This document shows positions 2,726 to 8,254 of a stretch of DNA of 30,751 bases, one piece after another. The notes beneath the pieces were generated by a model, which had not been told where the DNA came from, searched no databases, and saw only the letters and a program-made list of their open reading frames with translations. The stretch covers positions 533 to 31,283 of the forward strand of contig CAYRYX010000001.1 in assembly GCA_964428755.1 (NCBI GenBank), given 5' to 3'. This stretch comes from an uncultured Bdellovibrionales bacterium (GTDB taxonomy: Bacteria > Patescibacteriota > Minisyncoccia > Moranbacterales > UBA1568). The translations under genes were made by a program, and so were the position numbers. The stretch's first letter is position 1. Every line of letters starts with the position of its first letter.

Positions 2726-4213
2726 ATGAAACAATCCAGCAATGAAGTAAGGGTCCGGTTCGCACCTTCGCCGACGGGGTATCTGCACGTCGGGGGGCTG
2801 CGCACCGCGCTCTATAACTACCTCTTCGCGAAAAAGCACGGCGGTACGTTCATCCTGCGCATCGAGGATACGGATCGGACGCGGCTCGTTCCCAATGCGA
2901 TGGAGAGTCTGATCGATGTTCTCCAAAAAATGGGGCTTGCTCATGACGAAGGTCCGTATATCCAGTCGGAGCGGCTCGAGGTGTATCGGAAACATGCCGA
3001 GGAACTCTTGGCAGCCGGCAAGGCGTATCGCTGCTTCTGTTCCGCCGAACGATTGGAGGAGATGCGCGCCGGACAGACCGCGGCAAAGACGATGCCGAAG
3101 TACGATCGGCAGTGCCTCGCACTTTCTCCGGAGGAAGTGTCGGTCAAGCTTGCAGCGGGAGAGTCGCATGTGATTCGGATGAAGGTTCCGGATGATCGCG
3201 AAGTCGCATTTGATGATCTTGTCCGCGGAAAGGTTTCTTTCAAGACCGGGACGATCGACGATCAGGTGCTGCTCAAGTCCGACGGTTTTCCGACGTATCA
3301 TCTCGCGAATGTCGTGGATGATCATCTCATGGATATTACCCACGTGATCCGCGCCGAAGAATGGCTTCCGTCCACTCCGAAGCACATCCTCCTCTATGAG
3401 GCGTTCGGATGGGAGGCTCCGACCTATGCACACCTTCCGCTTCTTCTTAATCCTGATCGGTCGAAACTTTCGAAACGACAAGGCGATGTCGCCGTCGAGG
3501 ATTATCTTGCGAAAGGATATCTTCCGGAAGCGCTCATCAACTTCGTCGCGCTTCTCGGCTGGAATCCGGGGGAGGGGAATACGCAGGAACTGTTTTCACT
3601 TTCGGAACTTGTCGATCGATTCGATTTGTCCGCTGTCCACAAGGCGGGAGCGGTCTTCGATCTTGGGAAGCTCGACTGGATGAACGGGGAGTATATCAAG
3701 CGGCTTTCGGCGGATGAGCTCTTTGCAAGAACACTCCCGTTTCTTTCGGAAAAAGAGTTTTTTAAGGAATGGAGAACGGCGAATGGAGAATGGAGCGATA
3801 CGGATGCCGACTTATTTGTGAAGAGGGTGCTCTCGGTCGAACAGGATCGCCTTGTGAAACTCGCGGACGTCGGCGACGGGAGCCCGTTCTTCTTCGCAGG
3901 GCCGGCGGTTGAAAAGGCGACGCTTCCCTGGAAGAAGAGCACGGAAGATGGCGCGAGGGAGGCGCTCGGACGTGCGCTTGGTGTCATCGAGGCTGTTTCC
4001 GATGAGGATTGGACCCGTGAGAAGCTCAGCGAAATCCTGCTCGAAGCCGCAGGTGACGACCGCGGCGGGTTCCTTTGGCCGCTTCGGGTCGCGCTAACGG
4101 GCGCAGAAAAATCCCCGCCGCCCTCGGATATCGCCTGGGTTATCGGCAAAGAACAGACTCTTTCCCGCGTTCACGCCGCTCTTAATATACTTAGCGGTGA
4201 AACCGCTAAGTAA
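2726..4213 (+). CDS. gltX: glutamate--tRNA ligase
   Basis: RFAPSPTGYLHVGG (HIGH), FILRIEDTD, KLSKR (KMSKS), Zn site CFC...YDRQC. Confidence 0.98.
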   Translation: MKQSSNEVRVRFAPSPTGYLHVGGLRTALYNYLFAKKHGGTFILRIEDTDRTRLVPNAMESLIDVLQKMGLAHDEGPYIQSERLEVYRKHAEELLAAGKAYRCFCSAERLEEMRAGQTAAKTMPKYDRQCLALSPEEVSVKLAAGESHVIRMKVPDDREVAFDDLVRGKVSFKTGTIDDQVLLKSDGFPTYHLANVVDDHLMDITHVIRAEEWLPSTPKHILLYEAFGWEAPTYAHLPLLLNPDRSKLSKRQGDVAVEDYLAKGYLPEALINFVALLGWNPGEGNTQELFSLSELVDRFDLSAVHKAGAVFDLGKLDWMNGEYIKRLSADELFARTLPFLSEKEFFKEWRTANGEWSDTDADLFVKRVLSVEQDRLVKLADVGDGSPFFFAGPAVEKATLPWKKSTEDGAREALGRALGVIEAVSDEDWTREKLSEILLEAAGDDRGGFLWPLRVALTGAEKSPPPSDIAWVIGKEQTLSRVHAALNILSGETAK

Positions 4214-4276: not shown

Positions 4277-5542
4277 ATGGCTACAAAAAACGGAAAAAAA
4301 TATTTCCTCCTGTTTTTCGTCCTCGGGATCGTCGTTTCCGGCGGTCTTTTCGCGTCTTCGGCATACGGTGCGGATACGGTGGAAGAGTATGCGAACGATC
4401 TGAAGGACGACCTCAAGGAGATAAACGCGAAGATAAAGGCATACAGACAGATCGTCGATCTCAAGGAAAAACAGAGCGACACGCTCGAAAGTCAGCTTTC
4501 GACACTCGAGACGCAGGCGCAGAAGCTCGAACGGGAGATACGTGAGAACGAGCAGGCGCTCTCCGACCTCGGCCGTGAGCTCCGCGATACGGAGATCGGC
4601 ATCTCGGAAAAGGAGCGGTTCATCCTCCGTGAGAAGCAGGTGCTCTCCGGACTGATCCGCGAGTATCATGCCGCGACCGTGGACGGCGCCGACGTGCTCT
4701 TTGCACTCGGTGGTGACGACGGAATGCCGATGAAGCGCGAGGACTGGATTTCCGAGACGGGTGGACGTATCGGCACCATGTTACGGAGTCTGGAAGAGAC
4801 CAAGAAAGCGCTCCTTTCGGGCAAGGAGGTGCTCGACAAGAAGAAACTCGAAGCCGATACGCTCCAAGAGCAGCTTGATAAGCGGAACGAATATCTCGCA
4901 GGATCGAGACAGAGCAAGGCGACGCTGCTCGCGAAGACCGAGGCCGAAAAACAGAAGTATACGACGCTCGTCCGGACGCTCGAGGAGGAACAGAAGGATA
5001 TCGAGAACGAGATCAATAACCTCGAATCCGGGAAGATCGGCGTGCTTGATCTCGGAAAGATTCCGAAATACCAGAAGGGATTGCTCTCCTATCCCGTGAA
5101 GAAAGTCGTCATCACCCAGGGGTATGGCATGACCTCGTATGCGAAGAAGGGCGCATACGGCGGCGGTCCGCACAACGGCGTCGATTTCGGTGCCGGTACC
5201 GGAACGCCGGTCTATGCCGCGATGGGCGGCAAGGTCGCCGCTATCGGAAGCATGACCAAGAACGGGAAATGGTACGGGTACGGCAGGTGGATCGCGATCG
5301 ATCACGGAAACGGACTCCTGACACTCTACGGGCACCTCTCGAAGCAGAATGTGAAGAAGGGCGAGAAAGTGGACGAGGGCGAACAGATCGGTCTGTCCGG
5401 GAACACCGGGTATTCGACCGGCCCGCACCTCCATTTCTCCGTATTCTCTTCCGATTCGTTCGAGGTCGTCCCGTCGAGCAAAGTGTCTGGAATTTCCGTC
5501 CCGATCGGTGCGCACGTGAACCCGACGAAATACCTTCCGTAG
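4277..5542 (+). CDS. coiled-coil plus M23 family metallopeptidase (EnvC/murein hydrolase-like)
   Basis: N-terminal TM/signal, long coiled coil, HNGVD (HxxxD), YGHL, GPHLHF, VNP. Confidence 0.92.
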   Translation: MATKNGKKYFLLFFVLGIVVSGGLFASSAYGADTVEEYANDLKDDLKEINAKIKAYRQIVDLKEKQSDTLESQLSTLETQAQKLEREIRENEQALSDLGRELRDTEIGISEKERFILREKQVLSGLIREYHAATVDGADVLFALGGDDGMPMKREDWISETGGRIGTMLRSLEETKKALLSGKEVLDKKKLEADTLQEQLDKRNEYLAGSRQSKATLLAKTEAEKQKYTTLVRTLEEEQKDIENEINNLESGKIGVLDLGKIPKYQKGLLSYPVKKVVITQGYGMTSYAKKGAYGGGPHNGVDFGAGTGTPVYAAMGGKVAAIGSMTKNGKWYGYGRWIAIDHGNGLLTLYGHLSKQNVKKGEKVDEGEQIGLSGNTGYSTGPHLHFSVFSSDSFEVVPSSKVSGISVPIGAHVNPTKYLP

Positions 5543-5573: not shown

Positions 5574-6992
5574 ATGAATGATAAGAAGAATCAGATAGGC
5601 GTGGTTGGTCTGGCGGCGATGGGATCCAATCTCGCGATGAACCTCGCGGATCACGGGTTTCGCACGGCGGTCTATAACCGTTCTCCCGAACGGACGGGGG
5701 CGCTTCTTTCGGAATATGGGAGCGGCAAGGGTCTTGATCCGACGTATACGCCGGAATCGTTCGTCTTGTCCATCGAGACTCCTCGGAAAATCATCCTCAT
5801 GGTGAAGGCGGGTGATGCGACGGATGCGGTCATCGCGCAGTTCGCACAGCTTCTCGAGCCGGGTGACATTCTTATTGACGGTGGAAACTCGTTCTTCCGG
5901 GACACGATACGTCGTGCAGAGTCGCTCCGGGAGAAGGGGATCCGGTTCGTCGGGATAGGGATTTCCGGCGGCGAGGAAGGCGCACGTCGCGGTCCGTCCA
6001 TGATGCCCGGTGCGACCGGTGATCTGTGGACCGAACTTCGACCGATGCTCGAGGCGATCACGGCCTCGGACTTCGACGGGAATCCGTGCGTGGCTCCGAT
6101 CGGAGAGGGTGGAGCGGGTCATTTCGTGAAGATGGTGCACAACGGTATCGAGTATGCCGATATGCAGCTCATCGCCGAAGCTTATTTTCTCATGAAGAGC
6201 GGCCTCGGGCTTTCGAACGATGAGATTGCCGATGCATTCGAAAAGTGGAACAGCGGTCGGTTGGAGTCTTATCTCATCGAGATTACCGCGAGTATCCTCC
6301 GTGTGAAGGAACAGGATGGCGGTCGCATCATCGACCGGATTCTCGACACGGCCGGATCAAAGGGTACGGGAAAGTGGACGACCGACCAGGCGCTCGAACT
6401 GGGGGCTCCTTCGTTTTCCATCGCAGCGGCGGTATTCGCCCGTTCCGCATCGGCCGATAAGGCGATGCGCGTCCGGCTCTCGGATATTTTTGAGGAATCG
6501 GAAACATCGTCTGCCAGAAATCTCACGCTCGACGATGTCGAAAATGCGCTCTATGCCGCGAAACTCCTCTCGTACGCGCAGGGGTACGAACTCCTGTCGC
6601 TTGCGGCGAAGGAATACGGCTGGAATCTTGATTTCCGAGAAATCTCGCGTATCTGGCAGGGCGGATGCATCATCCGGGCGCGGTTCCTCCGGGAGCTGAC
6701 GCTCGTGTATACGGAAAACCCTGACCTCTCGCACCTGCTCCTCTCCTCGTTCGCGCAAGGTGCGATCAAGGAAAATATCGGCGCACTCCGGAAAGTTTCC
6801 GGGGCGGCGGTAGCGACGGGAATTCCTATTCCTGGATTTCTCTCGGGTCTATCGTACTTTGATACCATGCGTACGGCACAAGGATCGGCGAATCTTATCC
6901 AGGCGCAGCGCGACTATTTTGGTGCGCATACGTTCCAGCGTGAGCTTGGCGGAGAGCCGGAGCACTTCGATTGGAATTTTGAAAGTCTATGA
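5574..6992 (+). CDS. gndA: NADP-dependent 6-phosphogluconate dehydrogenase, decarboxylating
   Basis: GLAAMG, YNRS, IDGGNS, VKMVHNGIEY, KGTGKWT, IWQGGCIIRA, LIQAQRDYFGAHTF. Confidence 0.98.
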   Translation: MNDKKNQIGVVGLAAMGSNLAMNLADHGFRTAVYNRSPERTGALLSEYGSGKGLDPTYTPESFVLSIETPRKIILMVKAGDATDAVIAQFAQLLEPGDILIDGGNSFFRDTIRRAESLREKGIRFVGIGISGGEEGARRGPSMMPGATGDLWTELRPMLEAITASDFDGNPCVAPIGEGGAGHFVKMVHNGIEYADMQLIAEAYFLMKSGLGLSNDEIADAFEKWNSGRLESYLIEITASILRVKEQDGGRIIDRILDTAGSKGTGKWTTDQALELGAPSFSIAAAVFARSASADKAMRVRLSDIFEESETSSARNLTLDDVENALYAAKLLSYAQGYELLSLAAKEYGWNLDFREISRIWQGGCIIRARFLRELTLVYTENPDLSHLLLSSFAQGAIKENIGALRKVSGAAVATGIPIPGFLSGLSYFDTMRTAQGSANLIQAQRDYFGAHTFQRELGGEPEHFDWNFESL

Positions 6993-7378
6993 TAAAAGAT
7001 TTTGATACATGGAATGATCAAAAAAAGTCGCTCGATGTGAGGGCGGAGAGATTCTTCTTCAAGTCCGGGGAAGTGTGGTGGTGCGCGCTTGGAACGAATG
7101 TCGGCCACGAATCATGCGGAAAAGGAGAGACGTTCCGTCGCCCGGTCCTTATCTTGAAGAAACTTTCTCGTGAGAGCTGTATCGTGATTCCGCTGACTTC
7201 GAAAGAAAAATCCGGATCATGGTTCGCGGATATCACCCTTCATGGAGAGAAAAGGGTTGCGCTTCTTTCACAGCTACGCATGGTTAGCTCAAACCGTTTT
7301 CAGCGGAGACTTGCCGTGCTTGATGAAGGGGATTTTTCTTCGGTAAAGCGAAAGCTCGAGGAACTCCTCGAGCTTTGA
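6989..7378 (+). CDS. PemK/MazF family endoribonuclease toxin, no adjacent protein antitoxin
   Basis: GEVWWCALGTNVGHE...RRPVLIL...VIPLTS PemK pattern; ATGA overlap with the gnd stop. Confidence 0.85.
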   Translation: MIKDFDTWNDQKKSLDVRAERFFFKSGEVWWCALGTNVGHESCGKGETFRRPVLILKKLSRESCIVIPLTSKEKSGSWFADITLHGEKRVALLSQLRMVSSNRFQRRLAVLDEGDFSSVKRKLEELLEL

Positions 7379-7425
7379 AATCATCACCCCGCTTTCGCGG
7401 GGATCGGTGGGTAACCCCAAAAGTA
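7345..7425 (-). ncRNA. candidate antisense small RNA overlapping the toxin 3' end
   Basis: Lies downstream of a perfect - strand promoter; ccccgc-GAAA-gcgggg GNRA hairpin on - strand (7387-7402); 12-bp stem at 7351-7376 followed by U-rich nucleotides; ends estimated. Confidence 0.4.
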
Positions 7426-7430
7426 CTTCT

Positions 7431-7458
7431 ATTATAAATCATTTCATTGATTTGTCAA
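7431..7458 (-). promoter_or_regulatory. perfect-consensus sigma70 promoter, antisense to the toxin gene
   Basis: - strand reads TTGACA (7458-7453), 16 bp, TATAAT (7436-7431). Confidence 0.75.
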
Positions 7459-7462
7459 GCTG

Positions 7463-8254
7463 ATGCTTGTAAACATATCCGTATCATCCGAGGAAGCGAA
7501 ACGGGCTACGGCGGAAAGTATTTCGAGTAGCCTACTCGAACTCAAGAAAGAGGGAACTCCCGTTCTCTTTCTTTTTTCCGGTGGATCCGCACTGTCCGTT
7601 CTTGATATGATCGATCCCTCCTGTCTCGGAGGAAATCTGATAATGGCACCCGTCGATGAGCGGTTCGACCCGACCGGCGAGGCGAGCAACTTCGCCGCGT
7701 TCATGAGCACCGATTTTTTCCGGAAAGCGGAATCGGCTGGTGTGCGCTTCATCGACACTCGCGTGAAAGAAGGGCAGGGGAGAGGCGACCTTGCAAACGA
7801 ATTCGAAACCGCGATCCGAAAATGGATGGCGGATTTCGTTACTCCGACCGAATCTTCCTACCTTGTCATTCCGAGCGTAGTCGAGGAATCTCGTCCGTGC
7901 CCCATGGGCAAAGTCATCGCCATCCTCGGCATGGGTCCGGACGGGCACACTGCGGGAATATTTCCCGATGCCGATGAAAAGGCGTTCCATGATCGTTTCG
8001 AGGGCAATCGTCTTGTCGTCGGGTACCGCGCACCGGAATATGCTACCTGTCCGGAGCGCGTCACCGTGACGCTTTCATTCCTCGAAAAGAACGTCGACCA
8101 GGCGTTCGTCTTCGTTTCAGGGGAAGAGAAGCATACTGCCTGGGAGCGCGTCCTTCGCAATGACGAGCCGATCCATCTTCTTCCCGCTGGGATATTCCAG
8201 AGACTCTCGAAAGTGCAAATATTCACGGATTTGGATCGAAAAATCACGATATGA
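7463..8254 (+). CDS. pgl: 6-phosphogluconolactonase with an in-frame palindromic insertion
   Basis: LFSGGS, PVDERF, LGMGPDGHTAGIFP, RVTVT, VSGEEK; downstream of gnd. Confidence 0.88.
   Translation: MLVNISVSSEEAKRATAESISSSLLELKKEGTPVLFLFSGGSALSVLDMIDPSCLGGNLIMAPVDERFDPTGEASNFAAFMSTDFFRKAESAGVRFIDTRVKEGQGRGDLANEFETAIRKWMADFVTPTESSYLVIPSVVEESRPCPMGKVIAILGMGPDGHTAGIFPDADEKAFHDRFEGNRLVVGYRAPEYATCPERVTVTLSFLEKNVDQAFVFVSGEEKHTAWERVLRNDEPIHLLPAGIFQRLSKVQIFTDLDRKITI
7865..7891 (+). repeat. REP/RPE-like element half inside the pgl CDS
   Basis: gtcattccgagcgtagtcgaggaatct (VIPSVVEES) matches the intergenic GTCATT..GAG..GAAG(C/A)ATC family at 8808, 8843, 12384, 12476, 13685. Confidence 0.8.

Follow-up and report, generated by a model that had tools for sequence, protein, structure and literature searches.

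The window, a 30,751-nt stretch of contig CAYRYX010000001.1 (GenBank assembly GCA_964428755.1), carries a gene for a PemK/MazF-like toxin between the genes gnd and pgl. A second gene, for a small RNA (sRNA), converges on the toxin gene from the opposite strand and runs into its 3' end. The features of this gene pair are as follows.

6989 to 7378, plus strand: pemK/mazF-like toxin gene, 129 aa (Pfam, AlphaFold2, Foldseek, alignment with B. subtilis MazF)
7431 to 7458, minus strand: predicted sigma-70 promoter of the sRNA, with the -35 box TTGACA (7458-7453), a 16-nt spacer and the -10 box TATAAT (7436-7431), matching the consensus at 12 of 12 positions
7343 to 7424, minus strand: convergent sRNA of about 81 nt, candidate RNA antitoxin (match to covariance model R1, fold, covariation)
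7408 to 7419, minus strand: hairpin P1, UGGG-GUUA-CCCA, its sequence nearly invariant in the family
7384 to 7405, minus strand: hairpin P2, CCCCGC-GAAA-GCGGGG (7387-7402), with the invariant flanks 5'-GAU and UGA-3'
7343 to 7375, minus strand: terminator hairpin P3 (7352-7375) and U tract (7343-7351) (inverted repeat, fold, covariation among homologs)

An earlier reading of the window made from its letters alone (the sequence-only reading) had taken the open reading frame (ORF) at 6989-7378 for a PemK/MazF toxin, and the Pfam search bore this out. The 129-aa product matched PemK_toxin (PF02452) over profile positions 1-109 of 109, with an E-value of 1.2e-14 and 54.8 bits (cut-off 23.1). The AlphaFold2 model, for which 26 homologs served as input (pLDDT 86.6, pTM 0.80), has a MazF-type barrel between one helix at the N-terminus (residues 5-17) and another at the C-terminus. 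In the Foldseek search against the PDB, the top 50 matches were all MazF-type toxin chains (MazF, YdcE/EndoA, MoxT; probability 1.0, TM-score 0.62-0.81), including MazF-mt1, S. aureus MazF, B. subtilis YdcE/EndoA MazF and E. coli MazF. When the family profile was aligned with B. subtilis MazF (4MDX), R51-P52 fell on R25-P26, T70 on T48 and E41 on E20. From the MazF literature, we take R25 and T48 of the B. subtilis enzyme (R29 and T52 in E. coli) to be the catalytic Arg and Thr/Ser, and by this alignment the putative catalytic residues R51 and T70 are retained in PemK. Across the 26 homologs, R51, P52, F5, W8, K12 and W30-W31 are invariant. A helix with the motif FDxWNxxKK stands ahead of the MazF core as the mark of the subfamily, and PemK is a member of the distinct subfamily defined by this N-terminal helix. 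Judged by sequence and model, PemK is a genuine endoribonuclease of the MazF/PemK fold and probably active, and nothing points to its inactivation.

The promoter of the sRNA gene is the sole perfect site in 3 kb, and it predicts a transcription start at the A at 7424. The predicted RNA has the layout 5'-ACUUUU-P1-ACCGAU-P2-UGAUGAUU-(pemK stop)-P3-U tract; spelled out, with the hairpins in brackets, it is 5'-ACUUUU-(UGGG GUUA CCCA)-CCGAU-(CCCCGC GAAA GCGGGG)-UGAUGAUU-UCA(stop)-(AAGCUCGAGG AGUU CCUCGAGCUU)-UCGCUUU. Folding of the segment from 7424 to about 7343 gave -37 kcal/mol (z = -4.0). The promoter and the 5' half of the RNA occupy the 84-bp gap between pemK and pgl, and the RNA then crosses the pemK stop codon. 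P3 is a perfect 12-nt inverted repeat (7351-7362 and 7365-7376), which lies, together with the U tract, antisense within the last 11 codons of pemK (KRKLEELLEL). Since CTCGAG (Leu-Glu) is its own reverse complement, the hairpin accounts for the conserved LExLLEL tail of the toxin, and in divergent homologs with a different C-terminus the hairpin and the T-run are still kept, by covariation. The GAU and UGA flanks of P2 could form tandem G.A pairs (G.A, A.G) and a U.U pair, as in k-turn and box C/D RNAs.

For the comparative analysis, we collected 287 protein matches, essentially all from Patescibacteria/candidate phyla radiation (CPR) and at best 68% identical to PemK; 80 loci were taken from species-representative genomes, plus further contigs, and an alignment of 13 closer sequences was used to retrieve related loci. 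In about 70 loci, a conserved block follows 3' of the last conserved residue of the toxin, with the composition AATCATCACC - variable hairpin - GGATCGGTGGGTAACCCCAAAAGTA - N - TATTATAG - about 17 nt - TTGTCAAG. Read on the minus strand, this block is TTGACA, a 16-17-nt spacer, TATAAT and then the RNA. A promoter with at least 10 of the 12 consensus positions occurs within 125 nt after pemK on the minus strand in 46 of 70 loci, as against 2 of 70 each for the plus strand and for shuffled sequences.

The structure was tested on an unguided MAFFT alignment of 45 loci (A5), with the three helices P1, P2 and P3 comprising 18 pairs. In this alignment P2 has 6-7 bp of variable sequence, the UGGG/CCCA stem of P1 hardly changes, and P3 has the make-up of an intrinsic terminator, a hairpin with a U tract behind it. 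Pairing was observed in 91.7% of the cells of the three helices, compared with 75.4% in column shuffles, and the cells changed on both sides numbered 131 against 42. Compensatory change affected 14 of the 18 pairs overall and 6 of the 7 in P2; none of 500 shuffles matched the observed pairing values, and partners slid by 1-3 columns paired in at most 50%. In P2, 20 G.U cells stand against one A.C cell, which assigns the RNA to the minus strand. Of the two strands, the minus strand also gave the more stable fold in 51 of 60 loci (p = 7.5e-8).

The covariance model R1, built from A5, matched the window at 7343-7426 on the minus strand with 81.4 bits (E = 4.7e-20). Searched in 590 kb of homologous loci, it gave 80 matches, all of them convergent to pemK at its 3' end, and 35 of the loci lay outside the seed. 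Altogether, the sRNA is conserved with the toxin subfamily in about 75 of 79 loci. Second R1 matches were found at four loci (L035 4623-4702, L059 4890-4988, L079 3254-3328 and L083 2419-2511; L and G numbers are our handles for loci and genomes), of which at least L059 and L079 stand beside tandem pemK paralogs, so that the whole module of toxin and sRNA has been duplicated in some genomes. Among 41 related genomes, R1 matched beside pemK in G000, G003 and G024, besides one orphan and one weak partial match, while four distant pemK copies (G009, G016, G018) have a related but divergent convergent sRNA made up of a promoter, a GGCUUCGGCC hairpin and a second hairpin. With this record, we hold with high confidence that the sRNA gene is real and partnered with pemK.

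The conserved stretch is not explained by a protein. In homologs of 146-147 aa (L011, L013, L015, L020, L023, L024, L027, L031 and others), the stop codon is absent and the ORF reads through the sRNA gene, giving the tail ...SNHQ..GSVGNPKS. A role of this tail as protein was rejected, since the same bases lie out of frame behind the stop codon in the window, which places the conservation at the level of nucleic acid. Two loci have still longer pemK read-through ORFs of 380 and 476 aa (L026 1011-2153; L084 3992-5422). The minus-strand peptide ORFs 7284-7442 and 7289-7420 were also discarded; they start upstream of or at the predicted transcription start, pass the terminator and are unconserved. 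Rfam 15 held no match for the element in the window (E <= 10) or in 17 homologous loci (gathering score), and its pemK RNA motif (Weinberg et al. 2017 set) likewise matched the element neither in the window nor in the 17 loci. The best Rfam match in the window was Plasmid_RNAIII, an unrelated family, with 18 bits (gathering score 60) and E = 3.6, which we set aside as noise. The pemK RNA motif takes its name from its association with pemK genes.

MazF and PemK toxins are textbook protein-neutralised (type II) toxins. We therefore turn to the evidence on a protein partner. The sequence-only reading had noted that the 84-bp gap behind pemK lacks an antitoxin-sized ORF, and 7379-7462 indeed holds none in an orientation or frame that is conserved elsewhere. 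However, the gap is not featureless, as it contains the promoter and the 5' half of the conserved minus-strand sRNA gene. The same reading saw no neighbouring protein antitoxin, in agreement with an all-against-all BLAST of the ORFs (35-200 aa) that lie up to 1.2 kb from pemK in 82 loci, which gave no conserved neighbour family; the only clusters were shadow ORFs overlapping pemK and a few tandem pemK paralogs. According to simple gene models, the upstream neighbour is mostly a large, unrelated housekeeping gene on the same strand (murB, a tRNA-synthetase subunit, gnd here), and its distance to pemK is at most 10 nt in 13 loci and at most 25 nt in 21 loci. The small upstream ORFs of the homologous loci contained no MazE/AbrB or other antitoxin domain in Pfam. 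The arrangement of the type II MazEF and PemIK systems, with an adjacent MazE/PemI/AbrB or ribbon-helix-helix (RHH) gene, is thus absent from the window, where gnd lies upstream and pgl downstream of the toxin gene.

A neutralising protein could also be encoded elsewhere in the genome. The 1.04-Mb assembly to which the window belongs has exactly one PF02452 gene, and the genome-wide check for MazE/AbrB did return one candidate, a single MazE/AbrB/SpoVT-domain ORF of 62 aa on contig C106 (L112, 620..808, minus strand), whose PF04014 score of 26.6 bits is just over the cut-off. It is the only such match in the assembly, and the pemK carriers G003 and G024 also have such a protein. The assembly is 92% complete, which leaves a small chance of another, unseen partner. 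The family nevertheless fails to co-occur with the toxin: 18 of 41 relatives have it, often with 2-5 copies, and it is found in 3 of 6 pemK-positive and 15 of 35 pemK-negative genomes, whereas G009, G016 and G018 carry pemK without it. Furthermore, the C106 ORF shares 35 nt with the start of a co-oriented M23-like peptidase gene and is a neighbour of that gene rather than of a toxin. We rejected it as the cognate antitoxin on both grounds, and neutralisation by a protein encoded elsewhere in the genome is very improbable in our judgement.

A precedent for an RNA partner comes from Campylobacter. By tblastn, homologs of 31-38% identity with the same N-terminal motif were found on plasmids of Campylobacter, Helicobacter and Nitratiruptor and in Campylobacter CJIE4 prophages. 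The homolog on plasmid pVir of C. jejuni 81-176 is pVir0047 (405 nt), which has no annotated antitoxin adjoining; it belongs to the same subfamily as PemK of the window, with 34% identity in tblastn and the N-terminal motif FDEWNxVKK. The DNA behind pVir0047 contains a convergent TTGATT-17-TGATATAAT promoter and hairpins, and this promoter matches a transcription start site (TSS) listed in PMC3656092. Dugar et al. 2013 (PMC3656092, Tables S5 and S12) reported the pVir TSS 31119(-), whose height of 16164 greatly exceeds that of the neighbouring sites, and the Northern-detected sRNA CJpv3, which extends over 77 nt from 31119 to 31043 between pVir0047 and pVir0048. An antisense sRNA named CjrA is described as a type I RNA antitoxin on pVir (PMC10470494, PMC7826846, citing Shen 2016).

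The two loci are alike in several respects. Both have a strong convergent promoter about 85 nt past the stop codon of the toxin gene, both are situated on a mobile element, and both yield a short structured sRNA whose last GC-rich hairpin abuts the stop codon (GAUUAUCCCCGC...GCGGGG in CJpv3; AAUCAUCACCCCGC...GCGGGG in the window). We presume that pVir0047 and CJpv3 are probably the CjrA/CjpT pair of Shen et al. 2016 (Mol Microbiol 101:909). The window thus displays a CjrA/CjpT-like arrangement, in which a homologous PemK-like toxin faces a convergent sRNA abutting its stop codon, and expression of the sRNA was shown in the Campylobacter homolog. There are also differences. CJpv3 ends 5 nt past the stop codon, whereas the RNA of the window enters the ORF by about 35 nt and has its terminator inside the coding sequence. 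Apart from the stop-proximal hairpin the two RNAs are unalignable, although a GAUUAUC/AAUCAUC motif is common to them by eye, and R1 gave a weak match of 9.8 bits (E = 0.36) on the pVir region. Finally, the toxin gene of pVir has its own TSS, whereas pemK of the window is promoterless and coupled to gnd. In the Nitratiruptor and Helicobacter plasmid homologs, a convergent promoter is again followed by two or three hairpins that abut the stop codon.

The genomic setting of the module in the window consists of the following features.

4277 to 5542: M23 peptidase with coiled coil, upstream of gnd
5574 to 6992, plus strand: gnd, 6-phosphogluconate dehydrogenase (NCBIfam TIGR00873, 610 bits)
6989 to 6992, plus strand: ATGA overlap of the pemK start codon (6989-6991) with the gnd stop codon TGA (6990-6992), read from the sequence
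6975 to 7462, strand not assigned: inserted two-gene module of pemK and the sRNA gene, approximate limits (tblastn synteny with G001-G004 and junction alignment)
7463 to 8254, plus strand: pgl, a divergent 6-phosphogluconolactonase (Pfam Glucosamine_iso PF01182, 71.6 bits; TIGR01198 under the cut-off)

The overlap of the toxin ATG with the gnd stop codon as ATGA, pointed out in the sequence-only reading, is present at 6989-6992, and the translational coupling proposed there fits the promoter scan, which assigned pemK no promoter of its own. Transcript and translation of gnd would feed pemK, and a metatranscriptome contig that reaches 6998 indicates transcription across the gnd/pemK junction. 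In tblastn, four congener genomes (G001-G004), whose gnd is 60-86% identical to that of the window, keep the order gltX-M23-gnd-pgl, with gnd directly followed by pgl and without pemK. Their gnd ends in ...HFDW, and gnd of the window has five added codons, NFESL, up to the pemK start (6975-6992). On the other side, the junction alignment regains homology about eight codons into pgl, at SEEAK, so the insert spans approximately 6975-7462. As read from these alignments, the pemK module (about 470 bp) is an insertion precisely between gnd and pgl, and the NFESL extension of gnd is new sequence produced by the insertion.

A pemK homolog occurs in 6 of the 41 related genomes, and the same-genus copy is 47% identical. 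The congener G003 has its own pemK at a different site, behind an epimerase gene, and in general pemK occupies different sites in different genomes. The pemK module behaves as a small mobile accessory element, since such a patchy and site-variable distribution is unlike that of a housekeeping enzyme. The ends of the insert showed only short repeats at chance level, and no integrase, transposase or recombinase was found near it; in the metagenome DNA runs X1 and X2, no joints skipping pemK (empty-site alleles) were seen.

The suggestion of the sequence-only reading that the enzyme might be domesticated or inactive found no support in these data, given the intact catalytic Arg and Thr, the patchy distribution, the absence of the insertion in four congeners and the variable sites. 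In its broader form, this explanation holds that PemK is harmless here, because it is inactive, narrowly specific, a domesticated RNA processor or self-inhibited by its N-terminal DFDxWN helix, and that the RNA is a terminator, an insulator or a regulator of expression level. The N-terminal extension is acidic and Trp-containing, with F5, W8 and K12 invariant, and loosely resembles the C-terminal toxin-binding segment of MazE. In many genomes housekeeping operons drive the gene, evidently without harm, and MazF homologs that stand alone have been described. However, fold and catalytic residues are intact, and the gene is distributed like a selfish module. For a bare terminator or insulator, moreover, a consensus promoter would be superfluous, and so would two covarying hairpins whose invariant linkers are kept across phyla. 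The plasmid of the Campylobacter homolog has a reported type I toxin-antitoxin (TA) system with an RNA antitoxin. A harmless PemK is therefore very unlikely in our judgement.

The sequence-only reading had reasoned that a toxin driven by a housekeeping transcript needs another neutralising mechanism, and the gap itself supplies the candidate, namely the convergent, promoter-driven and structured sRNA. The sRNA is probably the antitoxin of PemK. As a whole, the locus seems best explained as an inserted module with an active MazF-fold RNase, in which the convergent RNA of about 81 nt serves as antitoxin, and we favour this explanation with some reserve. The analysis shows the identity, fold and catalytic residues of the toxin, the insertion, the lack of a conserved protein partner, and the existence, strand, structure and strict co-occurrence of the RNA gene. 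Transcription of the sRNA in this organism, its neutralising effect on the toxin and the route of that effect are inferred.

In the simplest model, the RNA acts in a type I-like manner. Made in excess from its consensus promoter, the sRNA would pair with the 3' end of the toxin message, which is part of the gnd-pemK-pgl transcript; because the plus strand has no terminator before pgl, this operon transcript must include the full complement of the sRNA. The duplex over the stop codon and the last codons would lead to cleavage or decay, or to blocked, non-productive translation. Such antisense pairing could keep the toxin output low despite the housekeeping operon that drives pemK. Additionally or instead, the sRNA may bind the PemK protein directly, in a type III-like manner.

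Several observations weigh against this interpretation or parts of it. Four sludge metatranscriptomes gave only gnd fragments, up to position 6998, and such data are uninformative for a small RNA; in activated-sludge samples, the genome reaches a DNA depth of about 6x. The hairpins of the window are wholly Watson-Crick, which makes the call of the strand dependent on the homologs. Antisense complementarity is automatic for any overlapping gene and alone is no proof of function. When the sRNAs were paired with the translation start regions of pemK, cognate pairs were no better than non-cognate ones (p = 0.37), which leaves an effect on the ribosome-binding site as in SR4/bsrG without support. 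A purely antisense model is further weakened by the variant loci and pVir, in which the sRNA ends at or before the stop codon, and by the non-coding half of the sRNA, which is near-invariant in primary sequence. The last two observations together suggest direct binding of the toxin.

Direct binding can be carried further, to an sRNA that would neutralise the toxin mainly by binding the protein, in a type III-like way. With P1, P2 and the conserved linkers, the folded RNA would occlude the RNA groove of the PemK dimer, and the antisense overlap would be incidental. The part of the RNA outside the ORF (UUUUGGGG..CCCACCGAUCC..GGUGAU) is near-invariant across toxins that are just 40-65% identical, more than antisense pairing needs, and the invariant GAU and UGA around P2 might provide a k-turn-like protein-binding platform. 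The overlap with the ORF is small or missing in divergent loci and in C. jejuni CJpv3, where the RNA ends at or before the stop codon, and ToxN, which is neutralised by RNA, has a MazF/Kid-like fold. On the other hand, the tandem RNA repeats and the upstream layout on the same strand known from ToxIN, CptIN and TenpIN are missing. The conserved sequence could instead be needed for the stability of the RNA, for an RNase site or for a host factor, and the position of the terminator inside the ORF, seen in most loci, suggests selection for the overlap. We take protein binding seriously as an alternative or additional route, although we regard it as clearly less probable than the explanation that we favour.

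An antitoxin RNA convergent to the toxin gene has its closest counterparts among type I systems. In B. subtilis txpA/RatA and bsrG/SR4 and in E. faecalis pAD1 par fst/RNA II, a small cis-encoded convergent RNA overlaps the 3' end of the toxin mRNA, the terminator sequences are shared or bidirectional, and the RNA has a strong constitutive promoter. The window likewise has a cis-encoded antisense RNA gene that overlaps the toxin transcript, at 7343-7424 on the minus strand and with its own predicted promoter. Unlike the toxins of these three systems, which are membrane peptides of 30-60 aa, PemK is by its sequence a soluble MazF-fold RNase of 129 aa. Type I toxins are typically small hydrophobic membrane peptides, with enzyme toxins such as SymE and RalR as known exceptions. 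The sRNA of the window also differs in lacking a detectable interaction with the 5' region or ribosome-binding site and in a primary sequence that is conserved beyond the needs of pairing.

With the type II systems MazEF, PemIK and Kid-Kis, the module shares the PemK fold, the Pfam family and the catalytic residues. It differs from them in its extra N-terminal helix and in its partner gene, which is an RNA gene, as no upstream MazE/PemI/AbrB or RHH gene was found here or in about 80 homologous loci. The type III systems ToxIN, CptIN and TenpIN are also mobile modules, in which, as is likely here, an RNA is the antidote of an endoribonuclease with MazF/Kid-like fold. However, RNAs of the ToxI type are tandem repeats that lie upstream on the same strand and are processed by the toxin, whereas the RNA of the window is single-copy and convergent and has its own promoter. 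Tandem Repeats Finder reported 0 ToxI-like repeat arrays in 6300-7800, and the toxin belongs to PF02452 and not to the ToxN family.

Taken together, the module is a variant, found across the CPR, of a pairing that has hardly been documented, between a MazF-type toxin and a probable RNA antitoxin, and the question left open by the sequence-only reading is most likely answered by the sRNA gene. A bolder proposal is a large, uncatalogued TA class that is a type I/III hybrid, centred on Patescibacteria/CPR and reaching plasmids and prophages of Campylobacterota. In this class a single-copy convergent RNA would replace MazE, pairing with the mRNA 3' end and binding the toxin through a k-turn-like platform, and the promoterless toxin would parasitise housekeeping operons; we put this forward tentatively, as a possibility with the odds against it. 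Systematic pairing of a subfamily with a small RNA calls for a different reading of "orphan" MazF genes, and to annotate the genes of this subfamily as "type II toxin-antitoxin system PemK/MazF family toxin" is misleading. With the sRNA, Rfam would gain a sizeable family that it lacks so far. The compact 470-bp module lends itself to the question whether an RNA can restrain a MazF RNase through antisense pairing, direct binding or a combination of the two. It also shows a selfish module that lodges within an essential metabolic operon of a reduced 1-Mb genome and borrows its transcription and translation.

In many homologs (e.g. L016, L019, L057, L062, L064, L065, L069, L085), an extended -10 box of the form TGnTAnnnT precedes the pemK ATG by 7-12 nt, a position that implies leaderless or near-leaderless toxin mRNAs. 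Two alternative modes of toxin expression thus appear, one from an own extended -10 box and one promoterless, abutting the stop codon of a housekeeping gene.

The orphan R1 match mentioned above lies in G024 (contig C41:1480-1563; L123 681-764, plus strand) and scored 46 bits (E = 1.7e-11), with no pemK adjoining. This sRNA sits between a membrane-protein gene and a convergent toxin gene of the Fic/DOC family (148 aa, Pfam Fic 42.8 bits), and the latter has its own small upstream ORF. The orphan could be the remnant of a lost pemK module or a stand-alone "anti-addiction" RNA.

For the gene downstream of the insertion, the promoter scan recognised no plus-strand promoter for pgl in the gap 7379-7462. 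Transcription of pgl must consequently come from gnd-pemK and run against the convergent promoter of the sRNA, and the insertion may reduce pgl expression via transcriptional interference. In G003, the short spacer between gnd and pgl (L108, about 3660-3712) contains a REP-like GTCATTCTGAGCGTAGCGAAGAATCC element where the pemK module sits in the window, and the position of this element may mark an insertion hot spot.

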